This document shows, in pieces, positions 690 to 61,513 of a DNA stretch of 64,000 nt. Each line of letters opens with the position of its first letter. Within the stretch, counting starts at the first letter, position 1. The position numbers and the translations under genes were made by a program. The notes beneath the pieces were generated by a model. It saw only the letters and a list, made by a program, of their open reading frames with translations, searched no databases and was not told where the DNA came from. The stretch covers positions 16,368,001 to 16,432,000 of the forward strand of contig CM022679.1 of assembly GCA_012295275.1 (NCBI GenBank). Reading direction: 5' to 3'. Source of the stretch: Chrysomallon squamiferum (taxonomy: Eukaryota; Animalia; Mollusca).

Positions 690-2640
690 ATCCGAATTTT
701 AAAGATATCAACTGGTGAAGGAAACAGCTTTTCCATGGGTTTGTAGGAGCTAAAAACTGGTGATGCAGAAAGTTTTCTTGCAGGCAGCTTACCTGACTTA
801 GCCGAGGCTATTAGCTCCACTGAAGCTGAAAAGTCAGGTTTCTATGCCCAATTGTTAATGTCAACAACAAACACCATGACAGATAGACATATTGTGAACA
901 AAAAATTCAAGATGCATCTTCAAGTGAGAGAAAATATTTAACAGATAGAGAAAAAAAAGAATATAATAGAAATCCATGGTCTTTACTGTGGACTCCATGT
1001 TCTAATTAATATGGCATCATCGGCCAAAAGTGTTATTGGTTTAAGCCATGATCTGATATACCAGTGTTGTAAAAGACTAACTGAAAGTGGATGTGGTGAT
1101 GAATTTAAAGCCATTCTTGAAGCAGAAAATAAGAAACATCATCTCATCACATTTATTGGCAATTGTTTCAATGACCTTTTCATCAACGGTGCTACTGTTT
1201 ATTATCACTGGAATGACATACCTTCTTTTTTCCATGAACACTACTGTGGGCAAAAGAATAAACTTTTACAAGCTATTCAAATGGTATAGAGATGATTGAT
1301 AATAAAGCCATGTGCCATGCTTTAGGCATTATTGAAAAGGACTCTTACTGGTCCATTGTGGTGGCTCTTGGAAGAAAACAAACATATTTTTGAAATGATC
1401 TCACATTGGGAACTTCTGTACACCAGTGTTCTAAACCTTAGCAAAGATACTACAGATCTTATTCATGGTGAATCCATATTCACAGGTGTTTGCATCACAA
1501 AGGATCATGTATGGGCTAATCTGTTTGCCACTCAAGATGCTGGATTCCAGCAAAAACCAAATACTGCCTACAAAAGGTTTTACACTCATTTATCCCATTG
1601 CTTTTTCACCAGTTACATGATCAGCTACCATGAGGAAAGTTCTATCAACCAAGTCAGAAAGTTATAGAGGAAACTGCTGGTGTTCAAGGCACATCAAAAT
1701 ATCTGAAGCTAACTTTGATGACCTTGACAGACTTGTGAAAAGAGCACTGCAGAAAGAAACTTCAACACAAGCAGGAGCTATACTTTATGTTAGAAACACG
1801 ACTGTCAAATATCTGAAATCTATTTCCAGTATCAAGAAAAGAAAGTATCTAGATACTGCTAGGAAACATGCAAAACAAGGAAGACAAACGGAATATCAAT
1901 GATGGAAAGAAATAATTAAAAACCATCAGCAACTTCTAGCAGAAAGAAAAAGAAAAAAGGGATTACAGGAACAAAAGGCAAGAGAATCAGCACAACAAAT
2001 AGCACAGAAAGTTCTTTCTGCTGGGTTATGGTACATTGACAAGCATGTTAACCAAAATGTACAGTTAAGTCAAGCTTCAAAAGGTAACAGTGCATGTAAA
2101 GTAGCAGTAAAGGAACAGATAAAATATGTACATGTGCATAAAGTCATTCTGATTGAAAAAAGTCTTGCAAAGTTTCAAAAAGACTAGCAGACTGTCACTG
2201 ATCCAGCTTGCAGAATATTTAAAATCCATCATGAGACTCCATCCATTATGAAATGTTTCACAACTGATTTGTCATTCAGTTATATCCTCACAACATTCAG
2301 ACAAAAAGAGGACAAATATCCATTCAGCGCCACAAATTAAAAAAGCCAAAGAATGATCCAGACGTGCAGAAAACCAAGTATTAGCTGTAGCTTATGATAC
2401 TGACTGGTTTGTAGGTGAGGTGTTGACAGTTCAAAAAAATCAGTAACAGTGAAATTTCTTCAAAATATTTCCATGCGCAAAGGAATCATGGTTGTTAAGT
2501 GGCCAAAGACTCATGACATCAAACACTTGGATGCCAAATTTGTGATTTCCTATGGCTCTGACATTGCACCAAATGATTCCAGTGGTTGAACAGTAAGTTT
2601 TCCTGGGAGTTTAAAAATTTCAAAGATGTATCGGGAATAA
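690..2640 (+). mobile_element. Degenerate DNA-transposon transposase (DDE-type) inside an intron of the TPR gene
   Basis: Collinear + strand coding-like fragments broken by stops/frameshifts: NTMTDRHIVNKKF (~870-910), GLYCGLHVLINMA (CxxH, ~978-1016), FIGNCFNDLFING, SEANFDDLDRL, and a C-terminal LAVAYDTDWFVGEV...VKWPK segment (~2380-2510). D/CxxH/E order fits hAT/P/MULE-related transposases (inference). No introns; ends not defined. Confidence 0.65.
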
Positions 2641-16800: not shown

Positions 16801-16863
16801 AAGGCAGGAGGTGGACTTACTGGCTTTGTCAAGGGCTGGTTGTCTTGGGGAGGAAAGAAATAA
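7892..16863 (+). CDS. SRP68: Signal recognition particle subunit SRP68 (12 exons, ~603 aa)
   Basis: Exons 7892-7991, 10626-10692, 11279-11392, 12227-12422, 12785-12867, 13400-13586, 13979-14218, 14519-14740, 15228-15322, 15637-15775, 15999-16130, 16627-16863; all GT-AG, sum 1812 nt, in frame. Hallmark motifs [83 protein letters not shown]. Confidence 0.97.
8967..10566 (+). mobile_element. 1.6-kb non-autonomous DNA transposon with 10-bp TIRs and 7-bp TSD in SRP68 intron 1
   Basis: TAGGTATGTG at 8967-8976 and its reverse complement CACATACCTA at 10557-10566; CTATATA flanks both sides (8960-8966, 10567-10573). Interior is CpG-rich with broken ORFs (9530-9829, 9634-9861, 9735-10199). Confidence 0.75.
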
Positions 16864-19219
16864 ATGCTTAAATCAAAATAGAGTGCATCGTTTGAATGAT
16901 GATGTAGTGAATTAAGAAAGACTTAAAATGGTTCATGTACATCCCTTGAGTTTGGGGTGTATGCTTTATTTCAGTGATAATGTTATTGATTCTTTTCTCT
17001 TTTTTTTGTTATTACATAAGTTGATAATTTAAAGAATTTGTACATGAAAGTCAAGAGAGTCATTCCTTTCCGTTTGGTGTGCAGCTGATGTGACACCTGT
17101 AATATTACCTTTGTTAGTTAAGTTATAAAATGAATCAAGAAACAAAAACTTGTTCATGATCATATAGAGACCACAGTATAGTTGTAATAATTTTTTTTAA
17201 CAATCAGTGGTTAAAAAGTATTTATTATCTTCATTGAATCTGAGACATTAAAATTCATGTCAAATATGTAGATTATCTTTATTTTCAATGCATTAATCAG
17301 TAAGATTTAACACAGACATATAAACAAATATGTTTTACTATAATGTAATGCTTTTGTTATTTAATAAAAAATAATTTAGAAATAAGGTTACATATTCATG
17401 TATGAATGGTGTGTTTGTATTTGTAATTACCTTTTTTCTTTGACTGCCTATGCACAAATGTGTTAACACCATTAAATTTATTACTGTTATAACTGATAAA
17501 AACATTGTTAGTGCTCGTAAATTATGTTAAGTAAAAGTATGATACGTGATTGATTCCTCTAACCACTTAAAAACATGTGATACTACCATGTGACCGTCAG
17601 AAATAAGCATAAAGTGAATAATAAAAAGACATGACAATTTACAGTTGCTGAAAAGTAATCTTAATATTGTTCTTTTATTTTATTATTATTTTCTTCTTTT
17701 TTTTTGGCATCTGAACTTTTTATGTAATATTATTTTTAAGTATGACTGAGCTAATAACAAATTTTCATTTTTAGCCACTACACTGCCATTCATTATTTAA
17801 GCATGAAACAAAACTTAGATAAAAATAAATTGTATATTATACCAGTGGAAAAAATAACCACATTTTCAACATTTCTTAAGTGAATATTATTCTTTGCTGG
17901 TGTGATTAAGTAATTATTTAATGTATTGCTTTCATTTTAGCAATCAAATTATAACAGGCTGTTGATTAAAAATTATAATTTTTGACTGTGCTTGATAATT
18001 TAAAAGTTCAGTACAAACTATTTACAGTTTCCTTGGATTTATCCATACATTTTCCTTCTTCATCATACCGTGTTTAATACTTGATTCTTTGGTGTACAAT
18101 TTGGTTATGGGTTCTGATAAAACTTTTTTTTATTATTATTATACTTGAGCAAATAAAATATCAAATTTATGATAAATCAATTGTTGTACTTTCTGTGGAG
18201 CATGTCCCAAAAATTTTTAAAATATTTATAACAACTTTTTATTTAATGAAATAACATCACATATGAATTTTTTTTATCTGCATGTAAACAGTAACAGTCG
18301 TAGCATAGTCAACATAGTATTTAAATTTACATTTAACTGGAGAAACTTAAATGGTTCTCTCTCTCACTTGTTTTTTTGTTTTTTTTTTTTTTTTTTTTTT
18401 TTTTTAATCTTTTTCCTAACCTGGATTGTATATTATTGTATCAGGGTAGTAGTCTCATGATTATTTTTTTTAAATACTTAACTTAGATGAAATAAAGTAT
18501 AACTATTTAATTTGTTATATAATTAAGTATATATATGTAAACTGGTTATTTTATTTATTTTTTTATTTATTTAAATTCAATTATTATTTTTAAATTTGCA
18601 ATTTAGAATAATTATAGATACCCTGAAAAAAAAAAAAAAATTAACATGTTGGAATGAAACTGCTGTATAAATATTTTATATTTTAAATATATCTTTGCTG
18701 AAACAAATTCAAAAGAAAGTAGATACGTTCTACATACTTGCTACATACTGTTTCTGTTGTGGGTTTTTTAACCATTTTTAGTTAATAACAAAGTATAACA
18801 TACAAAATATCTCACTGCTGGTGTTTTTCTGAAATTGTGACTCATGCTATTAATCATAAAAATTTCCATTTTATATGATAATTTTCCTCCATGCATTTAG
18901 TAATCAGACTTTCTTGCATTTATTAATTTATTTGGAATATCTGGCGTAACCTCATGAGCCATTAATATTTTGTTGTAATTATAAGAAACAAAAATTTAAG
19001 AATTCTGATATCTACATTAATACAGAAGTACTTCATGATGTTGTTTACATAAACATGATAAACATTCTAGAATAAAATAAGTAGTTTTAAGAATAGACAT
19101 TGTAAGAATTTTTTTCATTTTAACTAGTCAAATTTTTACAATGTAATTGTGATATATATAAATTATTATGAAAATGCCCCATCCTACAATTTGACAAGTT
19201 GTATATAAGAGTATACTGA

Positions 19220-37610: not shown

Positions 37611-39172
37611 AATTTAAAATAATTAAATTCAAGTGTCAAGCGATCACAATTCTTTTAAAAATTATCAAACACTGCAACAATATTAACTGTAAATTTGCCA
37701 CCCTGACCTAAGTTTTTTCTCCAGATCAATTATCATTTCATAAATTTTTAACATTTAACATTGTAAAATATTACAAATACATCTTCTTCAAAACATTACA
37801 CTGATAATCTTAATAATATACTACTATAAAAATATTTTATCATACACACTTATTTTTCTACATAAATTACATCCTGTTATATAATTCATTAAGGATATAT
37901 TTATTTTTAATTTGTTCTCTTTTTCCTTTTCTTTTGTTTAAATAAAAAGTGAGAAAAACGTTCTGTAAAAATGTCATCTTTCACTAACAGTTACATTTCA
38001 AAAACAGAAGATCCGGTGCATTGTCAGTATTACATCTAAAATTACAACAGAAAAAAAAACAAACCTGTTATAAAAATGTCATATTCATAATTTCGTCATT
38101 ATTTGATATTTATATATTAAAAATTTGTTAAATAGTAAAATAATCAGTTTTTTTTTTACAAGAAATGTCCTATAACAAACCTGTTCACATTATTTAAACC
38201 CTAGAACATTTTACTTTACAAACTGAATTTAAAGCTATAATTCAGAAATTTTTATTAAGGATGAAAAGGAGAATGCTTTTTTGTTTTTCTGTAACCAATG
38301 CTAAAAAAAAAATTCTTTTGGAGGAAGAGTTCTATAACAATTGTATCATAATAATACAGATTACAATTTTATCACAATAATTAACTATTCAAATCTTTAA
38401 TTTCTTTTTAAAATTATAATAATAAATCAAGCAATCTGAGGAGTAAATTATGTGATATCATTGTCAATGATATCTCTAATTTAGTTAATAAAATGTAAAT
38501 AATTTTTTTTGGAAATATAAATTAAATACTATTTAGTCAGTGAGATGCATTACTTCTCAGAATTTTAATCTAAGTGCTTGTTATTACAGTTTGCAGTCAA
38601 AGAAATGTAACAGTTTAGCTTTGCCTGAAACAAAGGCCAAATGTATTAGAATCTACACTAAAATATAATATACATAATTTTCTGATATATTATTTCTTGG
38701 ATAATATTAAAAAGGTATACAGGATAATAAAACCCATAAATGAAAATGTTTTTATGAATACTGCTGCCTCCAGAGTGAGTATCAATAATTAAATTTGTAG
38801 CTGAAACCATTTTAGAAAATATGTTATGCAATAAATAAATATATTGTTGTTGGACATATTCAGCAGCAAACAGGCTGCAAATAAAGAAATTCAAACCAAA
38901 AACCACCCAGAAGATATTAAAAAATAATTTTGCACAACAATGTATGACTGATAACAAGGTGCAAATTCCTTTCAGTGAACAGTAACAAAACAATGAAAGG
39001 AAAATACTTTTAAAAAGAGCACCATATAACAATTTATCCATCTTCATACTGGACAATGTTCTACAAGTCATTATTAATAAAAATAAAAATTGCCATTCTA
39101 TAATCCAGAAAGTAAAATATATGCATCATCAAACTGAAGAATGTTCTTCATTTCAAACAATGAGAACACCTG

Positions 39173-42100
39173 TTAATGGCTGTATCTGTGCTGATGCCCA
39201 TAACTGCTGGGATAATGTTTATGGTTGTGACCACCTTTTGTCTGGTATCTTTTCCAGTTACCAGGATGAGAACTTCCACTGTAGCTGTGATGGGAGGAAT
39301 TGCTGCTTCTGTGGCTGAAGTGATTGCTGCTGCTGTGGCTGGAGTGATAACTGCTAGCATGGTTGGAGTGAAAACTGCTAGCATGGCTGCCATGATGACC
39401 ATTCCGCTGGCTTGAATGCTGATGTCCTCCACTGAAATGATCTGGTGTTGAATGACTCTGAAAAAGATCACACAATAAAATCGATTTACAAATCTTTTTA
39501 GACAAATTTCATTGTCATATCTTTAAACAAAAGAATAGTGTAATGCACATATTGATCTTTAACAATAATGACAGGATTTTAGAATGTTTTTACGAAGGGT
39601 CCCATAATGAAGCAAATTCTGAAGTTAATTCAGTAAAACTTTTAATCACAATGAAATTAAGACTCAGATTGTAACAGTATTTCAAACAACAGCAAAAATA
39701 AAATTTCTTTATTATTTTTTTTTTTATTTTTTTTAAATCCCTGATTCAGAAACTGTCATGTTAATATTAATTTATAATCCATTGATATGCTCAGTTTTTG
39801 TTTATGGTGTTTATGCATGTACCTTCCCAGATGTTCTCTCATCCAGCATTTGTTGGAATGGATTATGGTTAAAATTTGTCTCCAAGGAATGTTTTCTCAC
39901 TTTCTTTATCTAAAAATAAAAATAATTTATTGTGGAATAACACAAAAAGATCTACGTATGTGTAATATATAAACATTTCTTAAACAGAATATTTGAACAG
40001 TAATATTCATATTACAAAAATTTTGACTTTTCACATTTATTATCTGTATGCATTAGCAATAATGATGTCACATATGAAAGAAAAATGGGAACTTTCAAGA
40101 GCTTTTTACAGTACTGTTCTGTTTATTACAAACAAATGTTTCTGAGCAGTGCAGACCATCACCTGAAAGTATAGAAATCATTCAAATAAACACAACTGGT
40201 TTGCAAGCAGGTGACATCAAGTCTAATTATATAGGGTTGGTATTCCACATTATTACATATGTTTTATAAAATTCTTTTCTACACACCCTTCCAGCATCTA
40301 ATTCCTCATCATAGTCATCCTCTCTCTGTTTCTTTCTACTGCTCTGTACTTCTTTTTCCACCTCCTGGTCAAGATGACTAGCACCTCCTTCCCATGATGG
40401 AACTAAAATTAAATATTTTTAAATATATTTTAATATATTAACCTGCTTTTTGGTTATCAGGAGCTTTTAACATTTAAAATAAATGACTATAATATTATTT
40501 TATTTAAAACTCAAACAGTTAAAATATTTCACTGAAATACTAAATTATACATTTATTTAATGGTTATCGAGTTGATTATATGTACAGTGTCATATAAACC
40601 ACAGAATAATTTGTTTATCTTACCTGATGACCCATATCCTTTAATAGAGGAGTTCTTCTCTAGTTCAGCAGCTACTTTGGAAAACTTACTGCCATCCCAA
40701 ATGGTCCCAACAGGCTTGGGACCTCCATTTCTAGAATTTGAATAGTAGTCCCATGTCTGCTCAGCTACTGAAATCAACCCAGATATAACAGATTATTTAT
40801 TATGTATAATAATTAATATTGATTATTTTTTAATTTTAATAAATAAAACTTTTTTAATTTCAATGATATAAACTACAGTGTTTGTCAGAATGAATTTTAA
40901 GCAGAAGACCAAATCAAATAAATACTGAAAATTAATAAATAAAAATGAATTTTTTTTGTTTTATGCTCACTTTGTTTAGCACTGGCCACTGTATTACTGC
41001 TGCTGACAATGGTTTCTTTGGTTTTCTCAACCCATATGTAATCCAAAGAGCTGGAATCGTCCTGTTTCTTTTCAGACTGTTCATCACTGTCTGAGTGATG
41101 TGCATGCTTTTCTTTTTCCTTTTTGTGTTTGTGTTTCTTTTTTTTCTTCTTATGTTTTTTCAGTGAGGTGTCCAGTTCAGAGTTTTCATTTATTAGTTCT
41201 TTGTATTTGTGTTTATTTTTTTTATGTCTTTTATGTTTTTTAACTTTCTTTGACAGGTGATCCTCCAATGGGGATTCTAAAAGCAGTGGCTGTTTATCAG
41301 AACAGCTTATGTGGTTGCCATTAGAAATAGCTGCCACAGTTTCTGTCATTTTATCTGATGACGAATGTGTTTTTTTGCTGCCTTCTTTATGAAATGGCAA
41401 TTTCAGTTTTGCCAAACAGCCAACAGTTTCATTTTTGTTAGAATGTTCAGAAAGATAGCTATCACCATTTTCCTTACTGTTTTTATTCAGCAATGAGTGT
41501 CCATTCAGGCCGTCCTGATTGAATGGTAATTTCATCTTTACTTCACATACAGTTTCATCATTTCTCCCAATATCCGCTTTATCACAGATGTTTTCTTCAC
41601 TTACATTGCTTAGTATTGTTTGATGTGTTGCAAGTTGTATTTTGGATGATGGCTTTTGTATCACTGTGGATTCCTGCAATATATTTTCAGTCAATAATTG
41701 AGTTTCATTATTTTCACCACCATCATCTTTAAAACTTATATCATTCTGTTTCAATATTGACCCTTCTTTTTCAGCTTCTAGATAATTTGAGTCTGTAGAG
41801 ATATATTTTCTTTCTCTAGACTGACTGGTGCTGGAAGCTCCATTATTTCCTCGCCTGGAACAAGATTCTCGCTCGGAACAAGATTCTCGCTCCTGATCAT
41901 GGGTCACAAGCCATTCAGTAGTAGAGTTTACACTTGTTGTACTGGAACATGAACCAATAGATGGACTGGGTTCCAGTTCCTGGTCTTCCACATGCCAAAT
42001 TGAATTCTGGCCTGACTTGGTGCTACAAGAAACAATATTTGCATCTGTTTTTGAAACAAGAGTGTGTGTTTTATTTGTCTTTCCTAGAACAAAGTCTTTT

Positions 42101-45100
42101 GTTGCATTATTGGGTGTTTCTAAGAGACTGGAGTTGCCAGGCACAGAGGTAGTAGCATTCAGTTTTGTGTCAAACACAACCCTTTTATCTGGGCCATTCT
42201 CAGTCTTCTGATTACCAGATTCTGACTTCTTTTGGCTGTGAACACCATTTGCCTTGACCTTCTTCGCCAGAGGTTCCTGATCTGAATCTGAATCATCTCC
42301 ATATGGAACAAGCCTTGACACTGATTGTTTCACATCACCATTCACTAGTCTGTCCTTCTTGTCCATCACTTTCGCGTAACCATCTGGGCTTTTCTCAAAT
42401 GTGGTTACTTTACCATTCTTTATGTGTACTACGATTCTTGGCTTTTTATCACTGGAACTGTTGCTTTTGTCGCCTGAACTGCTGCTTCTATCACTCAAAC
42501 CATTGCCTTTGTAAGCTGGACTATTGTTTCTGTCTCCTGAACCACTACTTCTGTCAGCTAAGCCATTATTGGTCTTGTTTTTCACCGAGTTCAGCCCAAA
42601 AGACACTTTGACTCTTTTGTCAGGCAATATTGAATCACTCCAGCTGCCAAGTACATTACGTTTTCTTGAGACTGGGCTTCCCACCTCAGTGCTGGGTGCA
42701 CCTGTACAACAAAGACAAGCAGTTTAAAATGATTCACATTCAGACACAAAATAATAGCATGATAAGATTTATTCTTTTCATAAAAATACACTATATTTAC
42801 ATTAAAAAAAATAATAATAATAATTAATTATAAAATGATGGTTATGATAAATTATGGAAATAGTTACCTTGCTTTTAATGCTCAGGATTCCATAAACATT
42901 TTTTAATTTCTTTGTGTCTATGAAATTAGTTATATAATTACTCTCACCAATTCCATTGGAATAGTTAGAATATTCCAGCTTCTGTGGACTGTTCTGATTC
43001 TGAGCACCTTGCACTGTGGGTCCAGTGTTAGGCTGAAATAAAAAAGTAAGACACTAGTAAAATAAATATAACAGTAAATTTTAACAAGTCCACTGATCTG
43101 TAAATAATTAAATGTACTTAAGCTGCTGCTTTTTCAACACCACCACCAATGACAACGACAACAACAGCAACAAAAATAAAATAGCCACAGTTCAGGTTTA
43201 AAAGGCAAATACCATTTTTAATTAAACCATGAAAATTTCAAATCATTATAACCTGAAATTTATAGACATTTTTCAAATTAATTTAACCTGTGAACATATG
43301 CCAATGGAATTTGAAACATATTACTAACTGATAGCAATAAATCATTTTAATATGAAACAAAATACTGTATAAAGTGGAGCCAATAAAAAATTCAAAATGA
43401 TAAAAATAATATAAAGACTTTTTTTCTTTTTTTGTGACATATTAGCATTTTTCTTTTCAGTCAGGTTTTAGGGATGGTACAATGACTCACCTTTTTAGGA
43501 GCTACTCTGCTATAAAAAAGGACATATGCCTGTGCATCAAAAACATGATTAACACTGACAGGAGACACCTTTGGAAATAGAAAAAATAATAATAGAGCTT
43601 AAACCAGCGATAAAAAGTTATATTATTATTACATAACATGTAGCATTTACAGTTCAGTTTTTTATCTGATGGGTTTTTTTTTATGTGTAATGTTTCTCTT
43701 TTTTCTTCTTCTCAGTTTCTACAAGTTTTATAATTACAACAATAGGTATTTTCTTTCAGTATGTTATTAATTCTACCAAATAACAGGCATCAAGTAGTGA
43801 AAATTTGTAAATATTTCCAGTTTTACAGCAGATAATACACAGAAAACTTAATAAATATCTTTTAAAATTTTGATTATAAAAATATCCAAAATAAAAGATA
43901 TGATAAAACTAAACAGGAAAACAGTAAACAGTTAACATGGATCTTTTAAGAATTAATTTCTACTTTTAAAAAGATGTACTTTAAATGAATTGACTTTATA
44001 TACATATTAAGTTATCTTATTATTCAGTTACTGACAATGTACAATTATTATTATTATTATTATTAGCTTACCGAGGAATCATTCATGCAGTACCATATAC
44101 TGGTGGGTGACTTTACATAACAGTAGTAGTGACCTGAGTTACAACAGTCCCCTGAGTGAACCAGCACAGCATACAGTCTGTAAAATACTGGTTCTCCCTG
44201 AAAATAATGATATTTATTTTTGAAGGCAAAAGAGAACTGATCACCAGTATTTATATATATATATATATATATAAAGATTATTTAACACAAAGAGTAAAAC
44301 AATTATAAATCTATCAGAAATGAACACAAGATAATAAATATTGTGAAGTAATGAGATAACAATAGTGAATAAACACACACACACACACACAGAGCAATAT
44401 ATTTAAACTGACTTGTAAGAGAAGAACAGAAGGGTGTAAATTATCAGTCTAGACATTAAATAATCTGCAAATTGTGTCAAATGTAGATACTATAATAAGT
44501 ATATTAATATGTAGGTTGCTGAAGAATATTTACATCCATAATATAATTAATATATGATTAATAATTTCAGAACATAACAAGGTAACATGTATTTACTGAT
44601 GTAAAAACAATGATCACGAAAATGCTTGAACAAATCAAAGAAAAAACAAAATAATAGCATAATAATAAGTTAGTTTTATAATCACAGACATAAACAAACA
44701 GCATTAAGATTAGTACTGAAAAAATTAAAGCTAGTTTTGTAAATGAAAAACAAATTTTAAAATGTGTTTAAATGTTTATTTGTTTATTTATTTACTTACT
44801 GGTTAAAATGTTAGCAAAATTTTGTTACTGTTCACTTTTTACTATGAAATTAAAGATGATTACCTTTTTCTTGCTTAAATAAGGCCTTAAATTAAGCTTA
44901 TCTGGAAAACGAATGTACTGTCGTATTTTCCCCATATTATGTTCATAGTCAAACCTGAAAACATGTAATAACAAATCACAAATGGAATGATTAAAGGATA
45001 ATATTTTTAAAATAGCTAAAATAATTCATTATAATCAAATTTGAAATGTATGCAAATTCAGCAGTTAATTTTTGAATTGTTTAGTTTCCAATTTTTTTTT

Positions 45101-48100
45101 TTTTTTTTAAACTCGAAATATCTCTGGGATTTTTAAAATTTGATTTACCTTTTGAGTTGAATAGTCATAATATTTGGAGGTTTGTGTACTGATAGTCTCT
45201 TCTGAGCAGAAACCTTTCTCTTACAGCTGGAAATAAAACAATATTTTTAATAATTAAAAGATATTCAGAACAAAGAGACAATTTTTTTTTTAAAAAACAT
45301 CAATTTTCAACATTGTCACGAATAGTATACTTTGTCATTTATTTATTTTTCATAATAACAATAACAATAACAATAATAGTAACAACAATAAAATAAAACT
45401 AACAATAATAATACAATAAAACTGTTACCTAAGACAAAGGTATGCATTATCCTTTTCCAGAGTTTCTGGTTGGACAAATTTCTCCAAAGCTCTTTCTAAA
45501 GTTTTCATATTCTGGAAATATATAATTATTATCTGAATGAATTCATCAAATAAAACACATAATTCAAAATATTTATTTCAACTGAAAATTACCATCATAT
45601 TGTAGTTTTATAACTTTTTATCCACTGACAACATCTCCTTTTGAACAAATATTTCTTGAAATTATTACATATTTGACTTCAATCTTATTCTTTTGCTAAA
45701 TGTTGAGTTATCAGGCATCAGTTCAAATTGATTCATTGTTTCTTAAAGCTGTTATTTCTGCACAGTGTTTGTGTTTGTCCACAAACACTGGCAAGTTATT
45801 TGAAAGAACAAAGTTTCTACAAAAAGCCAGCAATCAGTCAGCTTATATTTTGAGGCAATGAGTTCATGCCAAGTCATTTAAGGGTCGGTAGACTTCAGTT
45901 CCACAATATACTGATGCTTCAGTAAGATGTTTATCATTATAGTATTTTGAACATACTTGCTTAACAATCTTATGCCAGTCTGTGTTAGGTAAAGAATAAT
46001 GCTTTTTGGTGAGAAACAATTAGTTCTGAAACAATTACACATCCACTGACATAAAAAAATTAATAATAAAAAAATATAATCAGCTTGGGAGAAAAGTAAA
46101 TGTTTGGGTAACTGAAGCATTTAACAATCATTAGAGGTTTATAGGTCAAGAGCTCAAATGATTTCTTTATTTTCTGTCATTAATGGGGTTACATTTTTAG
46201 TTAAATATCTGAATTAAAAAAAATCATTTGAAAGTGTCATTAGACTTTATGAATGAATGTTGTAATTAAGAAATGAGAATTCTGTATTTATACTGTTAAA
46301 AGATTTATAAATTTCATTTACTGAAAAAAAAATTACAATATACCAAACAACACTAAAAAAACATCACTAACCTGAATGTCTAAACTTAGGTCCATAAATG
46401 GATCAAATGTATTGGATGTTTCTCCACATTGAAGGCAAAGAACTGAAAAAGATTTAAATGATATTTAGTCAGAAAATATTCAGCTATATACAATGGAGCT
46501 TCAGCCATTAATGGATAATTGTATGCTAAAAGTGGTAAAACTATTAACTAACTGTAACATAAATGAAATGATTTACTTTGCAGTAACAACTTATATTTTT
46601 GGTAGATGAGTGACATTATAAAATAAATATTTCAGATGATTATAAGATATGTAAATAAAAATAGAAGTTATGTTTCATTATGTGCAAATACAGAGATTAA
46701 CATTCAACAAAAATTAAGTAAGAGTATAAATATCTTTTTGGAACAAGATTATATTACACTGTAATTTTTATTAGTTGCCTCTTATACAGTTAGTTATTTT
46801 AATAAAATTGTGTAATGGGAAACATTTTAACATTTATACCTTGACTTCTTAGAAATCCTCCAAATATATGGTTGATAACAGTGGTTTCTCTGCTGTACTT
46901 GTCAAGCCTGAAATACAAAAGAATAAATCTTCTGTAAGTGTAACACATGCATTTCCTCTCTTGTTACTTGCAAATTCAAACAGTTGTGAAATGTATAGTA
47001 ATAAAGATACCAAAGTTAATTAAAATAAAGTTAAATATTTATGTTTTCTTCACAGTGCACACCTAAAGATGTTCACGTTACAAAAAAAATGGTTACTGAA
47101 TATTTATTGATTAGTTACAATCTGTAACTATTATATTGATAATTAATTATTGTAATTGTTCTCAACCCTCCTGAAAGTGGTTTATATGTTTAAGAAATAG
47201 ATGTGATAATACAAATCTAAAAACTGATATGGAGAATTAATGTACTTACGCTGAATGCCCATTTAAACATGCTTTTTGAAGAGCATCTACAACATATCGC
47301 AAAAATTCATGTGCATCTTCTTGACTGCCCCAGTGCATATGCTTTGCTATCACTAAAATAATAATGACAAAATTAATGTTATTTCTAGAACTATTGTCAT
47401 CGTGTAAGCTAACAAAGTAATCTGAAAAATTATTATAATGTACATATATTTACATCCTAGTAAACTGAAAATGTAAATAATAATAAAAAAATGATTTAGT
47501 ATATGAAACTATATAAACTACAAAAGGATAATTAAAAAATGTAAACTTGATAGTAATTAGATAAATAAATTATATTTTGCAGATACTTACTTTTCAGTTT
47601 GTGAAGAATTGGATATGGTTTAATGGCATGCCCATGGTTCCCAAAACATCTTCGAATATGATGTTGTAGTTCACACAGCATGCAAAAGCCAGTTTGGTTA
47701 CCTAAACATAAACACATAAAGAATGTTTTCATATCAATCTGATAGTCACCAAACATGCTACTGATGTATATATTAGTTTGGTAATTCTATGATGCAAGAG
47801 GACACACTAACTTCATTTTTTCCCCTCTTTATTTATGTTTGTTACACACACACATCATAAAATACACATCGATTCTTAACCATTAGTTGAGTAGAAGAAC
47901 AATAATTAGGAACAAATATTTTGTTATTTTATTTTTTATTCAAAAAAGATAAAAAAAGAAAAACATGTAATTGTATCAAAAAATATTTGACATCCATGAC
48001 AATGCCAAGTGTAGTTGTTTTTGTCTGCCTATAATACGAAATATGAATAAAAATTTAAAAAAAACAAACACAAAAACTCACACGTCTTCTTGTGTTCATC

Positions 48101-49095
48101 TGATAGGCAATAGTTAACAAGGGGAGGTGTATAAGTCAAGCACTGAAGTGTTGAATTAAGAAAACAAGTGTTTCCCATGTTAACTAGACCAGAACCAATC
48201 TTTTGAACCCGCCTCCATTCTAGTCGCACTTTCTCTTTTGGGTAAAGCATCACCTTTGGTTTTGGAAGACAATCTTTACTGTCCTTTTTCTGTGGGTTAT
48301 TCATGTCTTAAAAGAAATATAAGAAATATAAACATAATGATATAATGCAAATAGTTAACATTCTATTCTGTCTTGTGTCTTCAAAAAATAAATTAAAAAA
48401 ATAATAAAAAGAAATAAAGAAAAATATCTGCAATATGTAACTTTATTATGTAAATTATGTATGTATGTATGTATGTATGTATACTTTTTAAAATGCATTT
48501 AATAGTTAGCTTAATTTCTTAAGTTTTTAGAAAATATTTTATTTATTTAGTCTGGAATGAAAACCTTTTTATTTCAGGTCCATATTTTAGAATCCTAAAT
48601 TATTATTACAAAATTATTTAAAACAAAATTTTACAGTACTGTTTTATTATATTATATTATAGTTCTTAATTACTAACAAATAACTGTATTTGGAACATTC
48701 TGTCCAAAAATAACAATATTATTTAATTATTTACCTTAGTAATAAAGTGACACAAATCAGTTTAATGCATAAATTTAATAACAAAATATTCAAATTATGT
48801 TACCATTTTCTGAACTTCCACTTCCTTGATCTGAAATCCTTGCTGTCTCATTCAGTGGTATATATTTGGATTTGCAACCATCCAGCACATGTGAACCTGA
48901 CAACTTATTTGGCAAGGCATTCCTGATTTTGTTACAGTTAAGTTCTTGCATGGAAACATTTTCCGATGCTTTGAAGTCAACCTGGTGCAGCAAAGCCTTT
49001 TTGGAAGAAGAAATAATCTGATCTGACAGAAGACGTGTCCCTTCATTAATTGCCGTTTTCACTGCTTGAGTCAAATCCGCAACGCTGGCGGGCAT
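39173..49095 (-). CDS. USP36: Ubiquitin carboxyl-terminal hydrolase 36 (USP36/USP42/scrawny family), 17 coding exons, ~1257 aa
   Basis: Exons 49095-48804, 48306-48082, 47701-47591, 47352-47250, 46907-46840, 46442-46372, 45511-45429, 45226-45149, 44954-44864, 44197-44072, 43568-43491, 43032-42948, 42701-40971, 40767-40624, 40402-40287, 39909-39823, 39457-39173; sum 3774 nt, in frame. Cys box [33 protein letters not shown], His box [16 protein letters not shown]...WYCMNDS, poly-K basic tract, and USP36-type tail [17 protein letters not shown]...NPFQ. Confidence 0.95.
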
Positions 49096-50821
49096 AATAA
49101 ATTAGTATTTGACACTTAGCTGAAAAAGAATAAACTACTATTAGTAAAGCTAAAATGATAGTATGACAGAAAATAAAGTTGCAATCAATTTGGAATCCTG
49201 TTAAGATAAAAGGTCAGAATGTTATGCATAAATATATGATAATGACATATATTTATATGGTTAGCAGACCCAGTGGTTTTCTGTTTTGTGTTTTTGTAAA
49301 TTCTGTTTCATTTCTGTTTCAGGAATAAACTGTGTAATTAAAAACTAACATATAAAATAAACTAAAACAATTTGTCAAAATCACAGGAGAAATATAATAT
49401 TTATTCAAGATTCTTCTGTCAATGTCTCCATTACATTGAACATATTCCACATTTATCTTAAAAACAGCAATACATGTACTTGAAGGAAACACAGCATCGC
49501 TGTATGAAAAGTGTGCGTTAGTTGTGAAAAATCGCATCAGGATCAAAGATCTCAATTAAATCTAATTGTTTTAAAACAGAATTTTACAACTAAGTATAGA
49601 CAGTATTTTATTCAAAGTGGATCAGGGCTGACAGGCCGTAAAGAAAATGAAACTTCACTTAAACCATTTAATGACCACGGAATATAGCAACTGTGCAAGC
49701 ATGATTGGGGCACTGCATGTTTGACAACATCAACAAATTGTCTTTTCTTAGGGTGTAACAACAGTAAAAGGGATAATTGTTTTTCAACTTAGCTAGGTTA
49801 GTGTTGAGTAAGTGTATTTTATTTTTATTTTTTCCCCATTTTTTTTAATGAAGAAAACTAAAAACTAAAATTACTGTAACTGCAATTTGCACACCTTAAC
49901 CCTGGGTGTAAGACAGAACCCATGACATGTAAAACCCCTGTTTTCCAGCTGTAACCTTTTTCAAAAAGTCAGGCTGACTATGTTTTGAGGACAGGTCTTC
50001 TGGGCATAAATTAATGTATGAATTCCTTACTGATGTTAGCCACAACTTAAGAAAAATGACATGCAAGGAAATAAATAATTCCAAAATGACATAATATTTA
50101 CCAGTTGCATTGTTATTTCCATTAATGACATGGGTCAAAATATCTTAGTCCAAAATGTCCTACATTCAGCGATGCAACATGATGACAGTAGTTTTTGCAT
50201 GAACTTATTTGTCAATAAACTTATCAGTGTCATTTCTCATATGCATGTATGTCTATTTTGCTCTAAAAGGCTATTCTTTCTGATTATAATCATGAACACT
50301 TTATTTGTGAAGAAAATGTTTACTGTTTGTTTATTATGTATAGAAGTGAACAACAGAACCTCATAGAAGGGCCCAATATCTGTTGTTTTTCTTCTTCCTT
50401 CCCTTATTTAAATTATAAAATTGATTAGAATATTATAAAGTCAAATATCATTAGTAATGTTTAACAATTACTGATTGAAATAAACAAAAACAAGAGAAAA
50501 CAATCAACAATATTTTACTGATTCAATGTTTTAACCACAAGCGCTTTAAAGAAATATGTTAATTATAGTTTATTCATTCAATTGTATTATGCAGTCACTA
50601 TAATACTGTTTATCTTTAAAACAACAAATGGCACATGGTTCAGAAGCTTGAATGCCACATGTGATCTAATTTTATTTCAAGAAATGAACCGGTTTACAAA
50701 CAATTAAGAGACAAATAAAGAATTTAAACATCTAATTACCATTGAAAGATAATTATAACGTATATAAGCAATTTAATTCGACTGACAGCATCGCTGTATA
50801 ACATAAACTAAAAAGGTATAC

Positions 50822-53072: not shown

Positions 53073-53834
53073 TCATGATTGTAGAGTATTTTGTTCTCTT
53101 ATGTTTGAACATTTTTCATCTATGTTGAATCGACTGTATTTTTCTCTCAAGAGAAAAAGAACAGGAACACAGATTCCTACAGATCCTAGAACAGTCCAAT
53201 TCATCCACATTGTGCCTGAAAAAACCCAAACATTTATCATTTAATAAAAGTAAAATATTTATTTGAAAAATATGAAAGCAATAATTTGAAAATAATCAGC
53301 ATTCTCTAAAGTATTCATTAAAAAATATATTTATTATAATACAGTATGTAGCACATATGCAAATGTATTTGAGAAAATATCATTTTTTTTTGGTGGGATG
53401 ATATGTCATAATTCAAAGCATATAAAATGCTTTCTGTTTTTAGTAAAAATGTAATGAATAAATTATAAACATCTAAATTCTTTATCATTAACAAACACTG
53501 GTGTTTTATAATAAATAAAACAAATTGGAAATATACTAATGTAGTTATGCTGTTTTGTATGTAATGCCAACTTTAAACTTTTAATACATGAAGAAAATAT
53601 ATTTTAAAATAGAAACTTACGAATATTAGGAACCATTAGAACAAGAAGAAAGAGAAGACCTCCCAAGTTATTTACAGTTGTCAGAACACCATTGGTTGTC
53701 CCTTCACCAATTGGATATGTCAGTTCACAAGACAATTCAAATATGAGTGGGACTGCTGCATTCACTGCTGTTGTACCCACTATTACAGTGACATATAAAA
53801 CAGCTGCAAAATAAAACCCATAACTAATGAAATT

Positions 53835-53869
<35 letters not shown>

Positions 53870-56800
53870 CATTATTTAAAGAAGTTGGAAAGTAAATAAG
53901 ATAACACTGTTTAGAACATTTTTTTATATATATTTATCTTGTGATTACTGTACACAAGATATGATGATTTGATAAATTTCTATGGCTTTCTGGCATGGCA
54001 CTATATTTACTTCTAATAATTATGTATGTATTATTCAAAGTTACTTCTTTAGTGTTTAATCGCTGGTTTAGATTTTGAAAATGGTTTTTTTTTTTCATTT
54101 AAAAATAAAAACTATTTTATTTTTAAATAGTTTTATCTTGATGTGTAGATAACAAAGAAATCGATGTGAATATACAGTTGTCAAGTGTGGGGAGTTGAGA
54201 AATAAAACCGTTAAGTTCATTTAATTTTTGTATTACTCAGAATTGCAGAATAGAAGAGACAACTGTGTTGCAACAATGATACCCTTCTTTAAGATTTTTA
54301 ACACGGGCAAATAGAGATTAAAACAAAATATTTTATTTTGAAATGAGGTAGGAACCTGTTGATGCTGGTACTATTCCATAACAAGCCAATGCAAACCAGC
54401 AGAAGAAGCCAGAACTAATGATGAACAAAAGGATGATAAACCACTTCAAATGTTTGGAAAATTTATCAGCACATCTGAAATGTCACCCAAAAAAGATTAG
54501 TGAAAAGAAATCATTTATTAATATTACTTCAGTACAAGCAAAAAAACCCAAAGAAGTTATGATCATTTAAAACCAAGTGAAAGAAAATGTTCATTCAGTA
54601 TAAAAATAAAAAAAACCTTTAAAAATGCAAAACAATTATTATATTTTGTGTGAATATAAATTATAATAATATAATTGAGAGTTTAAATGTCAGTTCTTGC
54701 TTAACAATTAACCATTCTAATTAACAGCTTAACTATATTACCTGGGTACAGGTAATTATGATGTAGGGTAATTATTATATATTCAACATGTTTTACTAAT
54801 TTCATCTTATTTTACCTGGCTATAATAAGAGAGCATATACATCCGCTACATGTGGCATAGAATCCTATAAACCCTGCTTCCATCTCATTGACACCTAGTG
54901 GAGCTAAGTTGACATCTAAAACACTCGCCCAGCAGTTAACAACACCTAGTGACACACCATACACCGTAGAAATCAACCAAAACTGACCATTTCTGTAAAC
55001 AAATAAAGAAATATTTAACAATGAATACAACATATTTTTAATCACTATTAGTTGGTGTCATGCATACAGTTACTATACAAGGGGTAAAGAGAGAAAGAAT
55101 AACTCTGCAGACTTACTGTGGACCACTTGGTAAATATGTATTTCTAAGACTTGACACCCGATAGTTGACTCGTTTTACATGCTGGTCTGTTGTTAAACAT
55201 TCATTCATTCATTCTAAGACCTCTGTCTAGGACAGGAAATGATTCAATGGGTGCGATGAAGGGCACTGACTCTGCAACCACTGTCTAACCTCCCGCCATG
55301 CTAATAAATATTTGTGCAGAAATTTAGCTTATTAATAAAAACCTGTTGTTTTATCTTGTATAAAATTTCAACTATTTTGTCATCAGTTGCACAGTTTAAA
55401 ATTGTTTTAAAGCTTAATAAATTAATCTGTTTCTTTTAAATATCAAAATCTGCGTGGATTTTATTACAGCAATAGTACTATGCTAGGGCTTATTTTATTT
55501 GAAAAACTTAAAATTAGAATGCTACATTATGAGTGGAAGGTCGTCAACATAACTCTATTACTTCTCTTCTGCCTGTAAAAAGATAATTATTAAACCATTT
55601 GAAGTTAATTCAATTCTTACAAACCAGAGTTTTTATTTCTTATTTTACAAAACCAAGATATTTCTTATAAACCCAATTAACATTTTACAAACCTATATAC
55701 CTTCTTACAAAAGTACTTTATTTGTTACCTTTATTACTTATAAACCTAACTTTTTTTCTTACAAACATAATTTATCCCCCTATACCCAAGTAATTTTTTT
55801 TAAATCCTTTTTATTCAACAGATCTAAATAATTCTGTACAAACCTGAATAAATTTTTAAGACCAAGCCAGAAGTTTTCTCGAGCAAGGGATGCACTAACA
55901 CATGGTGGTCTTGGTGGTTTCTTCGGGAAATAGAGCAACATTAACAACAGAATGGCCAAAGACCATCCAAACTCTGTAACAGTGAATGAAATGACAGGAT
56001 AATAAAGAAATGAAGAAAAAAGAAAAATAAGAACAACATTGGTTTTGAGAATCAAACAAGAGCAGCTTTGTAAATATATCTTTCTTAAATTCAGAGTTGA
56101 TGTTAATTTGATTATATTTACATCTTGAACAGTATTAATATAATCCAATTTAATTTCAGAAGTCACTGTTTAATTTCAGATGACATTATATAAAATAATT
56201 TCAAATATCAGGATTATTTACTAAAAACCTATTTTTTATATATATATATATTTTAAGTTTCTAATTATCTTTAACATTAAATGTACTAAGTAAGATTTGA
56301 AATACAGATGTTTAGATATATCACCTGATTCAATAGACTTTATGTAAAATCATTACATTTATGAAACAGTTTATATCCTTTGGATACTGAGTATAATTAT
56401 TATAAATGTGACAAAGCTCTCTATATATAATTATTTTTTTATTACACAACTCACCTATATACATTAAAAACATAATTCCATTTCTTTCTTCTTCAATATT
56501 TACTATAAACAAGAGTAACATCTATTTAGTTACAAATACATATTTAATAAAAGGACACATAAGTCAGGGTTTGTTTCAAAAGTAAATAGGAATAAAATAT
56601 AAATTTCTTTGATCAGCTAGAATATAAAAAAATAAATAAGAATCATAAGCTAGAAATATTAATATGCAATATATTTAAGGGCATGCAATTACATGCATTA
56701 AATTACTAAATCTGAAATTTACATACCCAAATATATATTTATGAAAAGAAAATGACCAGGAATGAAATGATAAATTAAATTTCATTATCATTATTCTGGC

Positions 56801-59800
56801 TATAATTCTGTATTTGATCACCTGTTGAAAATAAATATGTGTTGTGTCTCTTTGTAAACTTTCAAAATTACAACCATTCACAATTTTTTTTTTCTTTCTT
56901 TCAAACACTGTTTTTTTATAATAAATTATGAAGGAGCATGGGAAATGTTCTTTTACCCTAAAGCATTTTTGTAATTAAAAACAAAAGTAATTTAAAAAAA
57001 AAAAAAAAAATAATAAAATCCTCCACAAAAAACACAAACCTGTTTGAGTAGAATTTTTGTTAAACTTTTTAATCAAGTAGTTTCTAAATGTAAAAATCAC
57101 TAGCTATATTTTCAGTTTCAAAAGCAATTTTACCTGAAGTATTTGTACAGTTCTGAGTAATCCACTGTTCGTGTGGCTGAGAAAATTCTTGCAGCTCAAA
57201 ATTTGTAAAATTTCTGTGATATAAAACAAAAAATAACATGAAATTTTACCCAATGTGTAATAAATGAACAATGTCATTAAGAAATGAAAATTAAAATCAA
57301 ATGGAACAGATTTTTTAAAAGATAATATCAAAAAGACAAAACAAAACTATGTAAAGAAAGTTTCAAATTATACATGCAATATTTGTGGTAGGCTGTGTAC
57401 TTTTTATTTCTAACTTTGTAAAACAGATACTTCTTTCTATTATTATATTTTAAGAAAGGTAAAAAAAAAATTAAAAATAAATAAACCACCTTGCTAGGAA
57501 ATTAGACAGATGCTTATTCTTTGTAAAGTAATTTGAAAAGTAATTTGAAAAGTATGAAGCAATAAGCTAGATGATAATTAACTTACACTGCGTGTGTGTG
57601 ATTTTTTGAGCAAGTAATATTCCCTTGAGGAACCAGCAAAGGACCTGAAATTAATCAAGCTTAATCTAAAACAGCCTTGTTAAATACACATTACAAAACT
57701 GACTCTACTGACTGTAAATAATTAGTGTCTTTTTGAAATAATCACTAAATGCCATAAAAAATAGATAAATAAAAAGTAGTAGTAATAATAGAATAGAATA
57801 GAATAAAAACTGGAACTGAAAATACATAACATTTATAAAGAGAAGTGTTTTAAAATAACAATGACTAGTAATAAGCATCTTTTAACTAACCTGTCATGCA
57901 TTTTCAAAAAGAAATTACTTCCTAAGACTATACACATCAATGCACGTTATATTTAATACATTTTACACTGACCTGTTACTGAACTTACTTTCAGATTCCT
58001 CCAAATAAAAAATATAGTTAATATAAAATAAAATTAAAAAAAAGAAATATAACAAGAAAGAAATTCCAGAAGAAGCAACTATTATTAAAAGTATTAAACT
58101 AAGTGTATTAGAGCGACTCTTTCTACAAGTTGTACCTGCTAGCCAACATGTTTAAATAAAAATGCATTTTTGCATTGAATTTTATAGAAATTACCAAGGC
58201 AACAAAAAGATTAATTTTTTTTAAAATTAAAGACAATTTAAGGTAAAAGTAAGCATATGTGATGAGAGATTAGATACAAAGTGCAAATAAAACTGTTTAT
58301 GTCTTTTCCTTCACCAAAGCTATTTCTATTAATATCACATTGAGTAAAACAAGATGAATGTTAGAATTAAGTAGCTCACTGAACAATTTAGATGTTAAAC
58401 ATGTATTTATGTATGATTTTTTGTGTTTGTTTTAAGATCACATTTGTATGCTAAATTATGACAGAAGAGGCACTGATAATAATGGCCTCATCTCTCCAGA
58501 TATTATCTAAAATACAGTTCATGAATACACAAGATGAAACTAGCTTCTATATTTTTATAAATATTAATGGAATCATGTTATCATTTCTTAATTTGAAATG
58601 ATTTATCTTTATAAACCTGAGTTATTACCATGAATATGTAACAAATTACCAACACGAAAAACTCAGTTTAAAATGTGTGGCTTCTGCTATGATGCAGGAG
58701 TCAGCAAAAAAAATAACATTTATCATTTCTGCAAATGGGAAATCTTGTAGAACAACGAGAAATGCAGCAATATGAAGAAACATGAAAGGAATTAATATTG
58801 GGAATATTACACAAACATGAAATATTAGCATGAATGAAAGCCAGGGCAGGCTGCCTGTGGAAATAAATGGAAGTAAGGAGGAGAAATACATACCAAAAAT
58901 GAAAGCAAAAGCTGTCAAGATGTTTGTAATAGCAAAAGAAGATGCAGTGCACACTGTTCTCTCACTGGGAGAAAACCAGACAGCAGATAGAGCTGGAGGA
59001 GCAGCCATTGCTACAGGTCCAGCCAAACCATTGAGAAAATGACCAGTGTTAACTAACCTGAAAATTATCCCCTGTATCAATTACTACAAACAGATTTTTC
59101 TTTTTTTAAATAAAATTATATAGTAAACCAGGACAACAAGTACAAAACTTTCATATTTGATGATTTTTTTTATAAAATGCATGTAAACACTTCTCATTTA
59201 TAATACCAAAAGACTGGTTATAAATCCATCTGAGTTCTTTCCAACTTTTACATTTTATTTCTACAGTCCTATGCATAACCAAAAGACATAACAAGATAAA
59301 AAGAATCCCACCAAAACTGAAGTCAAAATAAAACTGATGATGCTGAAACTGTTTTTGAAGACAATTTCACAATAACATTATGTAACAAAATTATATGTAT
59401 TCATTCTCATTAAAAGCTAAGTTTGCTGGCAACAAAACATACAAAAACCACTTATTCAACAAAAAAAGAAGAACATAAATAAGAAGAGAAACAAAATGAA
59501 AATTAAATAAAATTGTACAAAACAATTAACAATAATGGAAGATAAGTAAATGCCTGGAGCTGAATCTTTGTTATCAGCTTCCACTGAACTGAAATGCAAT
59601 CTTTTTACATAAGGTGATTCTTTACTAATTTTTATTTATTTTATTTTTTAAAGTGCCTCTTCTGCCATAATTCTTCAGTTCTGCATTTTGATTTGCAGTC
59701 AGTTACACTATTTTATATATTACTTTTAATGCAAAAACCACTCAATTTTTTTTTATATAAGTAAACCAAATTTTATGCAGCTTTTATCCATTTTTATGAC

Positions 59801-61513
59801 ATTTATTTGGAATTCAGATTATAAATGTATATTGAAAGTGACAGAAACTGGTACCTTACAATTATATTTTTAATTTTTTATAATGTAAACCTTCTACCAC
59901 TACAAAATCAGTGAAACAACGCCTGGTACAAACCTACTATAAAGCCCATTCCAGTTAACAGTATGGTAATTCCAAATGCTGTAGCAGTGCAAGTGGTTCT
60001 CTCATTTGGAGGAAACCAAACAGCAGAAACAGCAGGGGCCCCACCCATAGCTACAGGTCCTGCTGCACCCACTATACACTGCCCAGCATTTACCAACCTG
60101 TAACAAGAACATAGCGACATTAATTACCTTAACATGTATGGAAAACAGTACAAAACATGTGACATTTTGCCAACCACCAAGTAAAACAGATCTTTTGAAA
60201 GACCTATGAGAAATCCCGAACCTATTCCAAACATGTACATAGAGAGAATAATAGCAATGCTTGTTAATCTTTCAGAGGGAGCAAACCACATCATGGACAA
60301 TTTATACATGATGAGAAAGGTACAACTCCACCAAGACCAACCATCATTTGACCAAAGTTTATGCACCTGTGGAACATTGCATATCTGAAGTTAGAATTAA
60401 TGCTTAACATGCAAGACTTTTAATTATGAATAAATAAACTATTACCAGAAAATAATTAAAAACTATTTTCTTTTTATATAATTAAATTAAATTTAATCAG
60501 TCAGATAAAAAAAAAAATAATAAAATAAATACCAACAATCTTAAAACAGAAAGAACATATCATTATAAATTTGAACAAAAAGTTTCAATAGTTATAACTT
60601 GTGAATGTGTATATTAATATATTTGTTTCAGTTTCAAATAATTACTGAGTGAGTAAATGCTGAATTTATGTATTTGTATGTAACAGTTTTTCCACCAGTT
60701 TTTGTTATTATGCTTGTGTATATATGAATATGTATGTGGTTCTACCAGATGTTAATCTTACCATGTGACAGCTGGAACTGATGATGTAATGCAGCGAAGA
60801 CTACAACCCACTGTAATAAGTAACATACTTGACAAACATGCCCAACGTAAACCTTGAAAAAATTAAACAAATATTGTCATACATAAAATAGATATTCATT
60901 AATGATAAGACCAGTATAACATTAAAACATTTTAGATTAAAGATGATTTTATTTTTAATATATGGACATACAATAAATTCATCAATAATTTAATTGTTTT
61001 GATTCATATATTAAATATCAAAAAGATAATTTATATTTAAACAAATGTTCATTATTGTGACCTTTATAAGTTTATTGGAAAATATGTGTGGCAAGATTTT
61101 ATTATTCTTTTTATTGTTATTATTATTATTATTTGTCATCTAATTTGACATGTTTGACATGTTTGGCCTGATTTTTCTCACCTTTTACATCTATCATCCA
61201 AGAGAAAAAAACGGCACTAATCAAGTAGGAGATCGGACCCCAGTTTGTCAGCAATGAAATGTCAGAAGAACCCCAACCATAAACATCGTATGCTGATGTG
61301 GAAATGGGTCCCCAAGTATTCCAGACTCCACCCTGGGTTCCAGCAAACAAGGAATAAACAAGAAGAATGTACCAGCGACGTTTATATACCTTTAATATTA
61401 GTCTCACTTTCAATAATGACGTCTGGAACAATTACCGAGTTTGTTTCAGCAGAATAGTTTGAGTTCGAGTCATCGTGTGTTTCCGTCAGCAGTGGTTCTT
61501 TTTGTTCATCCAT
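53073..61513 (-). CDS. SLC49A4: SLC49A4/DIRC2-like lysosomal MFS transporter (FLVCR/SLC49 family) with three alternative copies of exon 3
   Basis: Exons 61513-61182 (one extra base near 61391), 60852-60762, [60366-60204 | 60097-59934 | 59057-58894], 57644-57587, 57213-57134, 56502-56455, 55973-55844, 54992-54816, 54474-54356, 53803-53621, 53215-53073. Motifs EQKEPLL (dileucine-like), KVYKRRWYIL, QGGVWNTWGPI, LNGLAGPVAMAAPPALSAVWFSPSER, YFPKKPPRPP, PLIFELSCELTYPIGEG, WMNW match DIRC2. Confidence 0.92.
55040..55214 (+). mobile_element. Possible SINE 3' remnant ending in (CATT)n
   Basis: TTGACACCCGATAG...TGCTGGTCTGTTGTTAAACATTCATTCATTCATTC resembles from memory the tail of gastropod SINEs; no RNA pol III boxes or TSD identified. 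Confidence 0.35.
58894..59057 (-). CDS. SLC49A4: SLC49A4 alternative exon 3c (164 nt, most canonical copy)
   Basis: TTTCAG|...|GTATGT; (W)LVNTGHFLNGLAGPVAMAAPPALSAVWFSPSERTVCTASSFAITNILTAFAFIF(G). Confidence 0.9.
59934..60097 (-). CDS. SLC49A4: SLC49A4 alternative exon 3b (164 nt)
   Basis: TTACAG|...|GTTTGT; (W)LVNAGQCIVGAAGPVAMGGAPAVSAVWFPPNERTTCTATAFGITILLTGMGFIV(G); open, same phases as 3c. Confidence 0.88.
60204..60366 (-). CDS. SLC49A4: SLC49A4 alternative exon 3a (163 nt as assembled; 1-nt deletion, possible pseudo-exon)
   Basis: CCACAG|...|GTCTTT; (W)CINFGQMMVGLGGVVPFSSCI-x-LSMMWFAPSERLTSIAIILSMYMFGIGSGFLI(G) with one frameshift near 60300. Confidence 0.7.

Follow-up and report, generated by a model that had tools for sequence, protein, structure and literature searches.

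The vertebrate solute carrier SLC12A1/NKCC2 has three tandem mutually exclusive exons, 4a, 4b and 4c (excerpts of PMC8373072). According to excerpts of PMC6873903, which cites a review, these exon 4 variants exchange one transmembrane segment for another and alter the affinity for ions. In helminths, annelids and molluscs, equal-length mutually exclusive exons remodel the protein core of coq-2 (exons 6a/6e) and mrp-1, and the mrp-1 exons arose independently in several lineages (excerpts of PMC7434440). Here we describe a cassette of this kind in a gene that resembles human SLC49A4/DIRC2 and FLVCR1/FLVCR2 in family and fold. It was found in a stretch of 64,000 nucleotides (the window, whose numbering is used below) from the mollusc Chrysomallon squamiferum (GenBank assembly GCA_012295275.1, contig CM022679.1, positions 16,368,001 to 16,432,000 of the forward strand). 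As read from the sequence, the gene occupies 61513-53073 on the minus strand and has 11 coding exon positions. We consider it probable that three tandem exons encode alternative versions of transmembrane helices 4 and 5 (TM4 and TM5), that copy 3b is spliced, 3c likely spliced and 3a frameshifted, and that substrate preference or transport rate is likely to set the two live proteins apart, as TM4-TM5 is predicted to line the transport path.

The three homologous exons lie between single-copy exons 2 and 4, and the coordinates, lengths and AG/GT borders given for them in the original prediction were borne out:

Exon 2, 60762..60852, minus strand: TM3; single-copy; the common donor, ending in phase 2
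Exon 3a, 60204..60366, minus strand: 163 nt, AG/GT; frameshifted pseudo-exon whose orthologue, the Gigantopelta X3 block, is intact
Exon 3b, 59934..60097, minus strand: 164 nt, AG/GT; open TM4-TM5 copy, orthologue of the Gigantopelta X1 block
Exon 3c, 58894..59057, minus strand: 164 nt, AG/GT; open TM4-TM5 copy, orthologue of the Gigantopelta X2 block
Exon 4, 57587..57644, minus strand: single-copy; the common acceptor, starting in phase 1

The copies are strongly diverged, with nucleotide identities of 107/164 (3b-3c), 83/164 (3a-3c) and 85/165 (3a-3b). The 3b and 3c proteins are unlike at 22 of 54 sites, and the residues that had been quoted as distinguishing the copies (HFLN, QCIV and QMMV in TM4; TNI, TIL and YMF in TM5) are all present. 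The adjacent exons 3b and 3c are alike in length and phase, entering in phase 2 and leaving in phase 1 as predicted; this does not hold for 3a, which is one base short at 163 nt and has an internal stop. Starting in the in-frame 3' portion of exon 1, the frame stays open to the stop codon in exon 11 with 3b or 3c alone, so that both copies have indeed remained open. These are two of the eight possible exon combinations. Exon 3a ends inside itself, the message skipping all copies (skip-all) ends in exon 5, and all four multi-copy combinations end early, 3b+3c at the start of 3c. The stops of the 3a, skip-all and 3b+3c products precede the last junction by 722-1213 nt, and a stop far ahead of that junction is the usual mark of a target of nonsense-mediated decay. 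Thus, the claim that exactly one copy must be used stands for the protein, where the frame demands it, and fails for RNA, where a skip-all junction occurs in one run. Likewise, the two to three transporters expected from one gene become two open copies, since 3a is frameshifted here.

The RNA evidence consists of contigs of two runs (X8 and X9) from one study, in which DNA or unspliced RNA is also present. A joint between exon 2 and 3b (GT..AG, 664 nt skipped) is found in both runs, and one between 3b and exon 4 in X8. Exon 2 is joined directly to exon 4 (60762 to 57644) in X9, and this joint is absent from the X8 contigs. In the joints to 3b (X8) and to exon 2 (X9), the exon 4 sequence forms the loose end. 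The skip-all junction has a depth of 11.6 (of about 26) in X9, compared with 5.9 for the exon 2-3b junction. The skip-all RNA is a frameshifted product, and its existence means that splicing by itself does not ensure exclusivity. Past the cassette, its first in-frame methionine occurs in exon 6, close to where Patella isoform X5 begins. In both runs, a contig ending in exon 2 followed by GTT is separate from the contig with the 3b junction, and a second continuation is therefore needed. Besides 3b, only 3c among the downstream exons begins with GTT, so splicing of exon 2 to 3c is likely. Contig depth, a poor measure of level, gives a hint that 3c is used at least as much as 3b. No splice junction into or out of 3a, and no 3a-3b joint, was found in the contigs of the two RNA runs, where the exon 1-exon 2 junction is a loose end in both. 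Among the three predicted routes from exon 2 to exon 4, then, the one through 3b is confirmed, that through 3c follows from the contig pattern, and that through 3a did not appear.

Exon 3a is a dead exon in Chrysomallon squamiferum. It is a base short near 60302, meets a stop near 60292 and reads ...SSCINCP-stop. Contigs from two DNA runs (two studies) and the two RNA runs cross it without a gap and are identical to the assembly (666/666, 666/666, 397/397 and 393/393 letters); one of the DNA runs may underlie the assembly, and the other study is independent. Contig depth over 3a equals that of the flanking introns. We conclude that the lesion is not an assembly slip, because the contigs of all four runs carry the 3a letters as assembled and without a 3a junction. 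The donor of 3a, GTCTTT, is far from the usual consensus. At T185, 3a has isoleucine, and threonine is invariant in the 81/81 other rows, including the Gigantopelta orthologue. The loss looks recent in this lineage, to judge from the single lesion, the intact AG/GT and a branch length (0.21) similar to that of the orthologue (0.18). Exon 3a is less conserved than the constitutive exons (33/53 vs 329/412, p 0.007) and not clearly less so than 3b and 3c together (p 0.09). Rescue through an AG 18 nt upstream can be rejected on a reading of the sequence, since the frame would be unchanged and a stop created at the junction. A search for short 3a-type fragments gave five candidates, none of them significant.

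We then compared the copies with their relatives, whose isoforms are predicted gene models compared as proteins. Gigantopelta aegis has three RefSeq isoforms, unlike only in a 54-residue TM4-TM5 block, and these pair one to one with the exons of the window: 3a with X3 (tree supports 100/99), 3b with X1 (100/97) and 3c with X2 (98/84). Exons 3b and 3c are 74% and 78% identical to their orthologues, about as conserved as the constitutive exons (80%, 329/412 identical), and identity across copies is 54-59%. The copies of this cassette are thus conserved across species. A window-only origin of the copies is rejected by the approximately unbiased (AU) test on 54 columns (p-AU 1e-4). Together with the one-to-one orthology, this supports the original prediction of an old duplication; in the sequence trees, the duplications predate the split from Gigantopelta. 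Further AU tests of lineage-only clades rejected none of them (Gigantopelta plus the window, p 0.44; Haliotis, 0.18; Patella, 0.34; oyster, 0.48), and a shared 3c/Haliotis clade was likewise not rejected (p 0.29, 54 columns). One ancient origin and repeated origins are both compatible with these tests. Exons 3b and 3c group weakly with two Haliotis types (91/82), with L/M at G195 in common.

Isoforms unlike only in the cassette block occur in 6 of 30 protein clusters, from nine mollusc species (G. aegis, H. rubra, H. rufescens and C. angulata with three each; H. asinina, H. cracherodii, P. vulgata, P. caerulea and M. gigas with two each). Mutually exclusive use in relatives is supported by these predicted isoforms. 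No swap was found in the other 24 clusters among the members compared, a set of all but short fragments that includes 13 of the 100 members of the second oyster cluster. In Bradybaena and Littorina, near-identical copies stand under separate locus tags and are whole-gene duplicates. Five of the 234 proteins with a cassette hit are fused models that repeat the TM4 or TM4-TM5 block (one from Batillaria, one from Magallana and three from Littorina; P0012, P0026 and P0226-P0228). This suggests tandem copies mis-joined by annotation, i.e. likely unrecognised exon clusters.

The assignment of the cassette to TM4-TM5 agrees with structure models of Gigantopelta isoforms X2 and X3 (predicted local distance difference test, 86.9 and 87.3), which have the same 12-helix layout. 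In these models, the swapped block 149-202 falls on TM4 (145-175, with a kinked end) and TM5 (178-206). In a fold search with the X3 model, the top 12 matches were all FLVCR1/2 (target TM-score 0.84-0.92). In FLVCR1/2, TM4 and TM5 face TM10 and TM11 across the inward cavity that these four helices form, choline sits among TM1, 2, 4, 5, 7 and 11, and the inner gate is TM4b (excerpts of PMC11168923). When FLVCR1 residues are mapped by ungapped alignment, N245 corresponds to position 192, which is N in 34 of 81 homologues (the commonest residue), T in 3b/3c and Y/F in 3a. Position G195 is G in 73/81 homologues and L/M in 3b/3c. The gate serine S203 of FLVCR2, placed through a 23-residue offset to FLVCR1, corresponds to position 173 (A, A and M). 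Sibling isoforms differ at 10-17 of 21 TM5 positions. A changed cavity shape, and hence a changed affinity or substrate range, would be the likeliest outcome, and the different substrate or proton coupling originally proposed for the isoforms is a plausible prediction. By analogy with human SLC49A4 and FLVCR1/2, the likely role would be lysosomal export of small cationic metabolites that are pyridoxine-like or choline-like.

As to how one copy is chosen, steric exclusion is unlikely, given introns of 106 and 876 nt, a candidate branch motif about 83 nt from the 3a donor and a limit of roughly 50 nt for such exclusion. The donors GTCTTT, GTTTGT and GTATGT do not match the U12 consensus, and U12 incompatibility was rejected. 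For a docking/selector mechanism of the Dscam type, in which conserved long-range RNA pairings compete, 15 segment pairs of the window were scored, with the 3b-3c intron covered in part, and none stood clearly above its 8 shuffles (the best by about 1.5 sd). With no support for steric, U12 or pairing mechanisms, the likeliest basis of exclusivity is competition between splice sites together with decay of out-of-frame products. One copy would win that competition, and messages that lack the cassette or include two copies would, with their early stops, be removed by nonsense-mediated decay. Decay of such messages may also let splicing set the amount of transporter.

Several observations weigh against this picture of two live, functionally distinct proteins. 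The use of 3c is indirect, being read from the contig branch pattern, and the RNA is limited to two runs of one study, seen as contigs whose depth measures level poorly. In X9 the depth of the skip-all junction equals or exceeds that of the 3b junction, which fits nonsense-mediated decay poorly unless decay is weak, and no docking/selector pairing stood above the shuffles. Exon 1 carries a frame break as assembled, seen in the assembly letters alone. The FLVCR1 substrate contact Q214 corresponds to G161, which is unchanged in all 13 variants compared and argues against a change at that contact. The functional difference is a prediction, as are the RefSeq XP isoforms. A rival reading is a cassette that is real and whose isoforms are functionally equivalent, the copies drifting at tolerant helix positions and being gained or lost without selection for difference. 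We regard this as improbable, though it deserves to be kept in view: 3a was lost here while the gene was retained, TM5 positions 188-198 vary throughout the family in any case, and most clusters show no swap. On the other hand, each copy holds its own signature between species, as the identities to orthologues and across copies show, and two to three copies are retained in several lineages.

The skip-all RNA could also point to a main function in on/off control or in a half-transporter, with regulated skipping leading to decay or to a C-terminal product initiated further downstream, and with exon choice being secondary. Its depth in X9 and the start of Patella isoform X5 at the methionine just past the cassette are in line with this; however, skipping is seen in one run only and its protein product is hypothetical, and we give the idea little credence. 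Slighter still is the chance that the assembly has introduced the 3a frameshift and that each of the three exons works. A nearby intronic repeat (60466-60532) has 68 letters in three contigs and 67 in the assembly, through either allelic variation or a slip in the assembly; exon 1 contains a break of like kind; Gigantopelta has an undamaged 3a orthologue; and, as contigs drop rare alleles, a rare intact 3a allele would be compatible with the data. The repeat indicates that single-base errors occur here and can be recognised, but 3a is not among them: the contigs of 4/4 runs from two studies match it gap-free, and 0/2 RNA runs have a 3a junction. The reading with two live proteins, from 3b and 3c, is thus the one that we prefer. 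A wider proposal, which we put forward tentatively and rather doubt, is that the TM4-TM5 exon is a recurring evolutionary hot spot in molluscs and annelids, where it would be duplicated, diverge, persist in 2-5 copies and at times die. The copies would serve as specificity modules with which one lysosomal carrier changes between vitamins or amines according to tissue, and regulated skipping would be an off switch. If this were true, tissue switching might perhaps help to draw metabolites from the digestion of symbionts or food.

The remaining exons of the gene are as follows:

Coding exon 1, 61182..61513, minus strand: N-terminus, TM1 and most of TM2
Exons 5-11, 53073..57213, minus strand: luminal loop and TM6-TM12
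Exons 5-8, 57213-57134, 56502-56455, 55973-55844 and 54992-54816, minus strand
Exons 9-11, 54474-54356, 53803-53621 and 53215-53073, minus strand: stop codon in exon 11

By its predicted protein, the gene is a gastropod SLC49A4 homologue. A search with the exon 1 peptide returned SLC49A4 homologues, the best match being Gigantopelta aegis (91%), and the window protein is the sister of the Gigantopelta aegis protein in a 47-row tree (support 100). The protein would accordingly place its source among gastropods near G. aegis, in a group of vent snails. The SLC49A4 names of the homologues are database labels, and the tree contains no vertebrate SLC49A4. The closest relatives and the 12-helix major facilitator superfamily (MFS) fold of FLVCR type (sequence searches, tree and models) fit the SLC49A4/DIRC2 subfamily, in agreement with the identity originally proposed. 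The subfamily is characterised by H+-coupled pyridoxine transport and by an acidic dileucine motif at the N-terminus that directs the protein to lysosomes. The predicted N-terminus of the window protein has an LL with upstream acidic residues, with spacing off by one compared with the human ExxxLL. The one-base frame break of exon 1 lies near 61392 within an A run and is probably a homopolymer assembly error; past the break, 64 of 70 residues are identical to Gigantopelta.

Elsewhere in the window, a multi-exon ubiquitin C-terminal hydrolase (UCH) gene (about 39000-49100, minus strand; Pfam UCH), which we take to be USP36/42-like, includes a 608-codon exon and a repeat at 39150-39520 that is His/Ser-rich or Ala/Thr/Ile-rich. 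A multi-exon SRP68 gene (Pfam SRP68) lies at about 11200-16900 on the plus strand. Broken, GC-richer pieces of open reading frames at about 750-2600 (plus strand) and 8900-10200 have the look of transposon remnants, and the four pieces tried had no Pfam match. An exon-like open reading frame at 4417-4623 (minus strand) appears TPR-repeat-like by eye and has no Pfam match.

As to published descriptions, our literature searches, where most subscription journals are absent, found none of SLC49A4 cassette splicing, of tandem exon duplication with mutual exclusivity in the MFS, of DIRC2 alternative exons in invertebrates or of MRP1 docking. Among the 20 papers listed, of 2,616 on splicing in molluscs, none names solute carrier family 49, and none of 12 listed on mutually exclusive exons in mollusc transporters has SLC49 in its title or the opening of its abstract. 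The supplement of a human tandem-exon catalogue has no hits for SLC49, DIRC2 or FLVCR. Excerpts of a 2026 preprint (PMC13484576) link zebrafish slc49a4 to red-cell formation and mention neither splicing nor isoforms. The event is already present in RefSeq isoform sets and is therefore unremarked rather than unseen. SLC49A4 has one reported substrate, and a search of the PDB gave five hits, all FLVCR1/2 and none SLC49A4. Isoforms identical but for TM4-TM5 are ready-made chimeras with which substrate choice in SLC49 carriers can be mapped, and nature has provided a loss experiment in the two species of which one has 3a intact and the other has it dead.

Among the known systems, the molluscan SLC49A4 RefSeq isoforms X1-X3 swap the same 54-residue block as the locus. 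Those are automated models, whereas the locus has a dead copy and gives rise to a skip-all RNA. NKCC2 has a different transporter fold, and in it one helix is swapped and the function is shown; in SLC49A4 the cassette is a two-helix MFS hairpin whose function is predicted only. Similarly, coq-2 encodes an enzyme whose substrate switch is proven, while that of SLC49A4 is a prediction, and mrp-1 encodes an ABC transporter. The SLC49A4 cassette is thus a further case of tandem mutually exclusive exons in transporters, built on a splicing design that is itself known.

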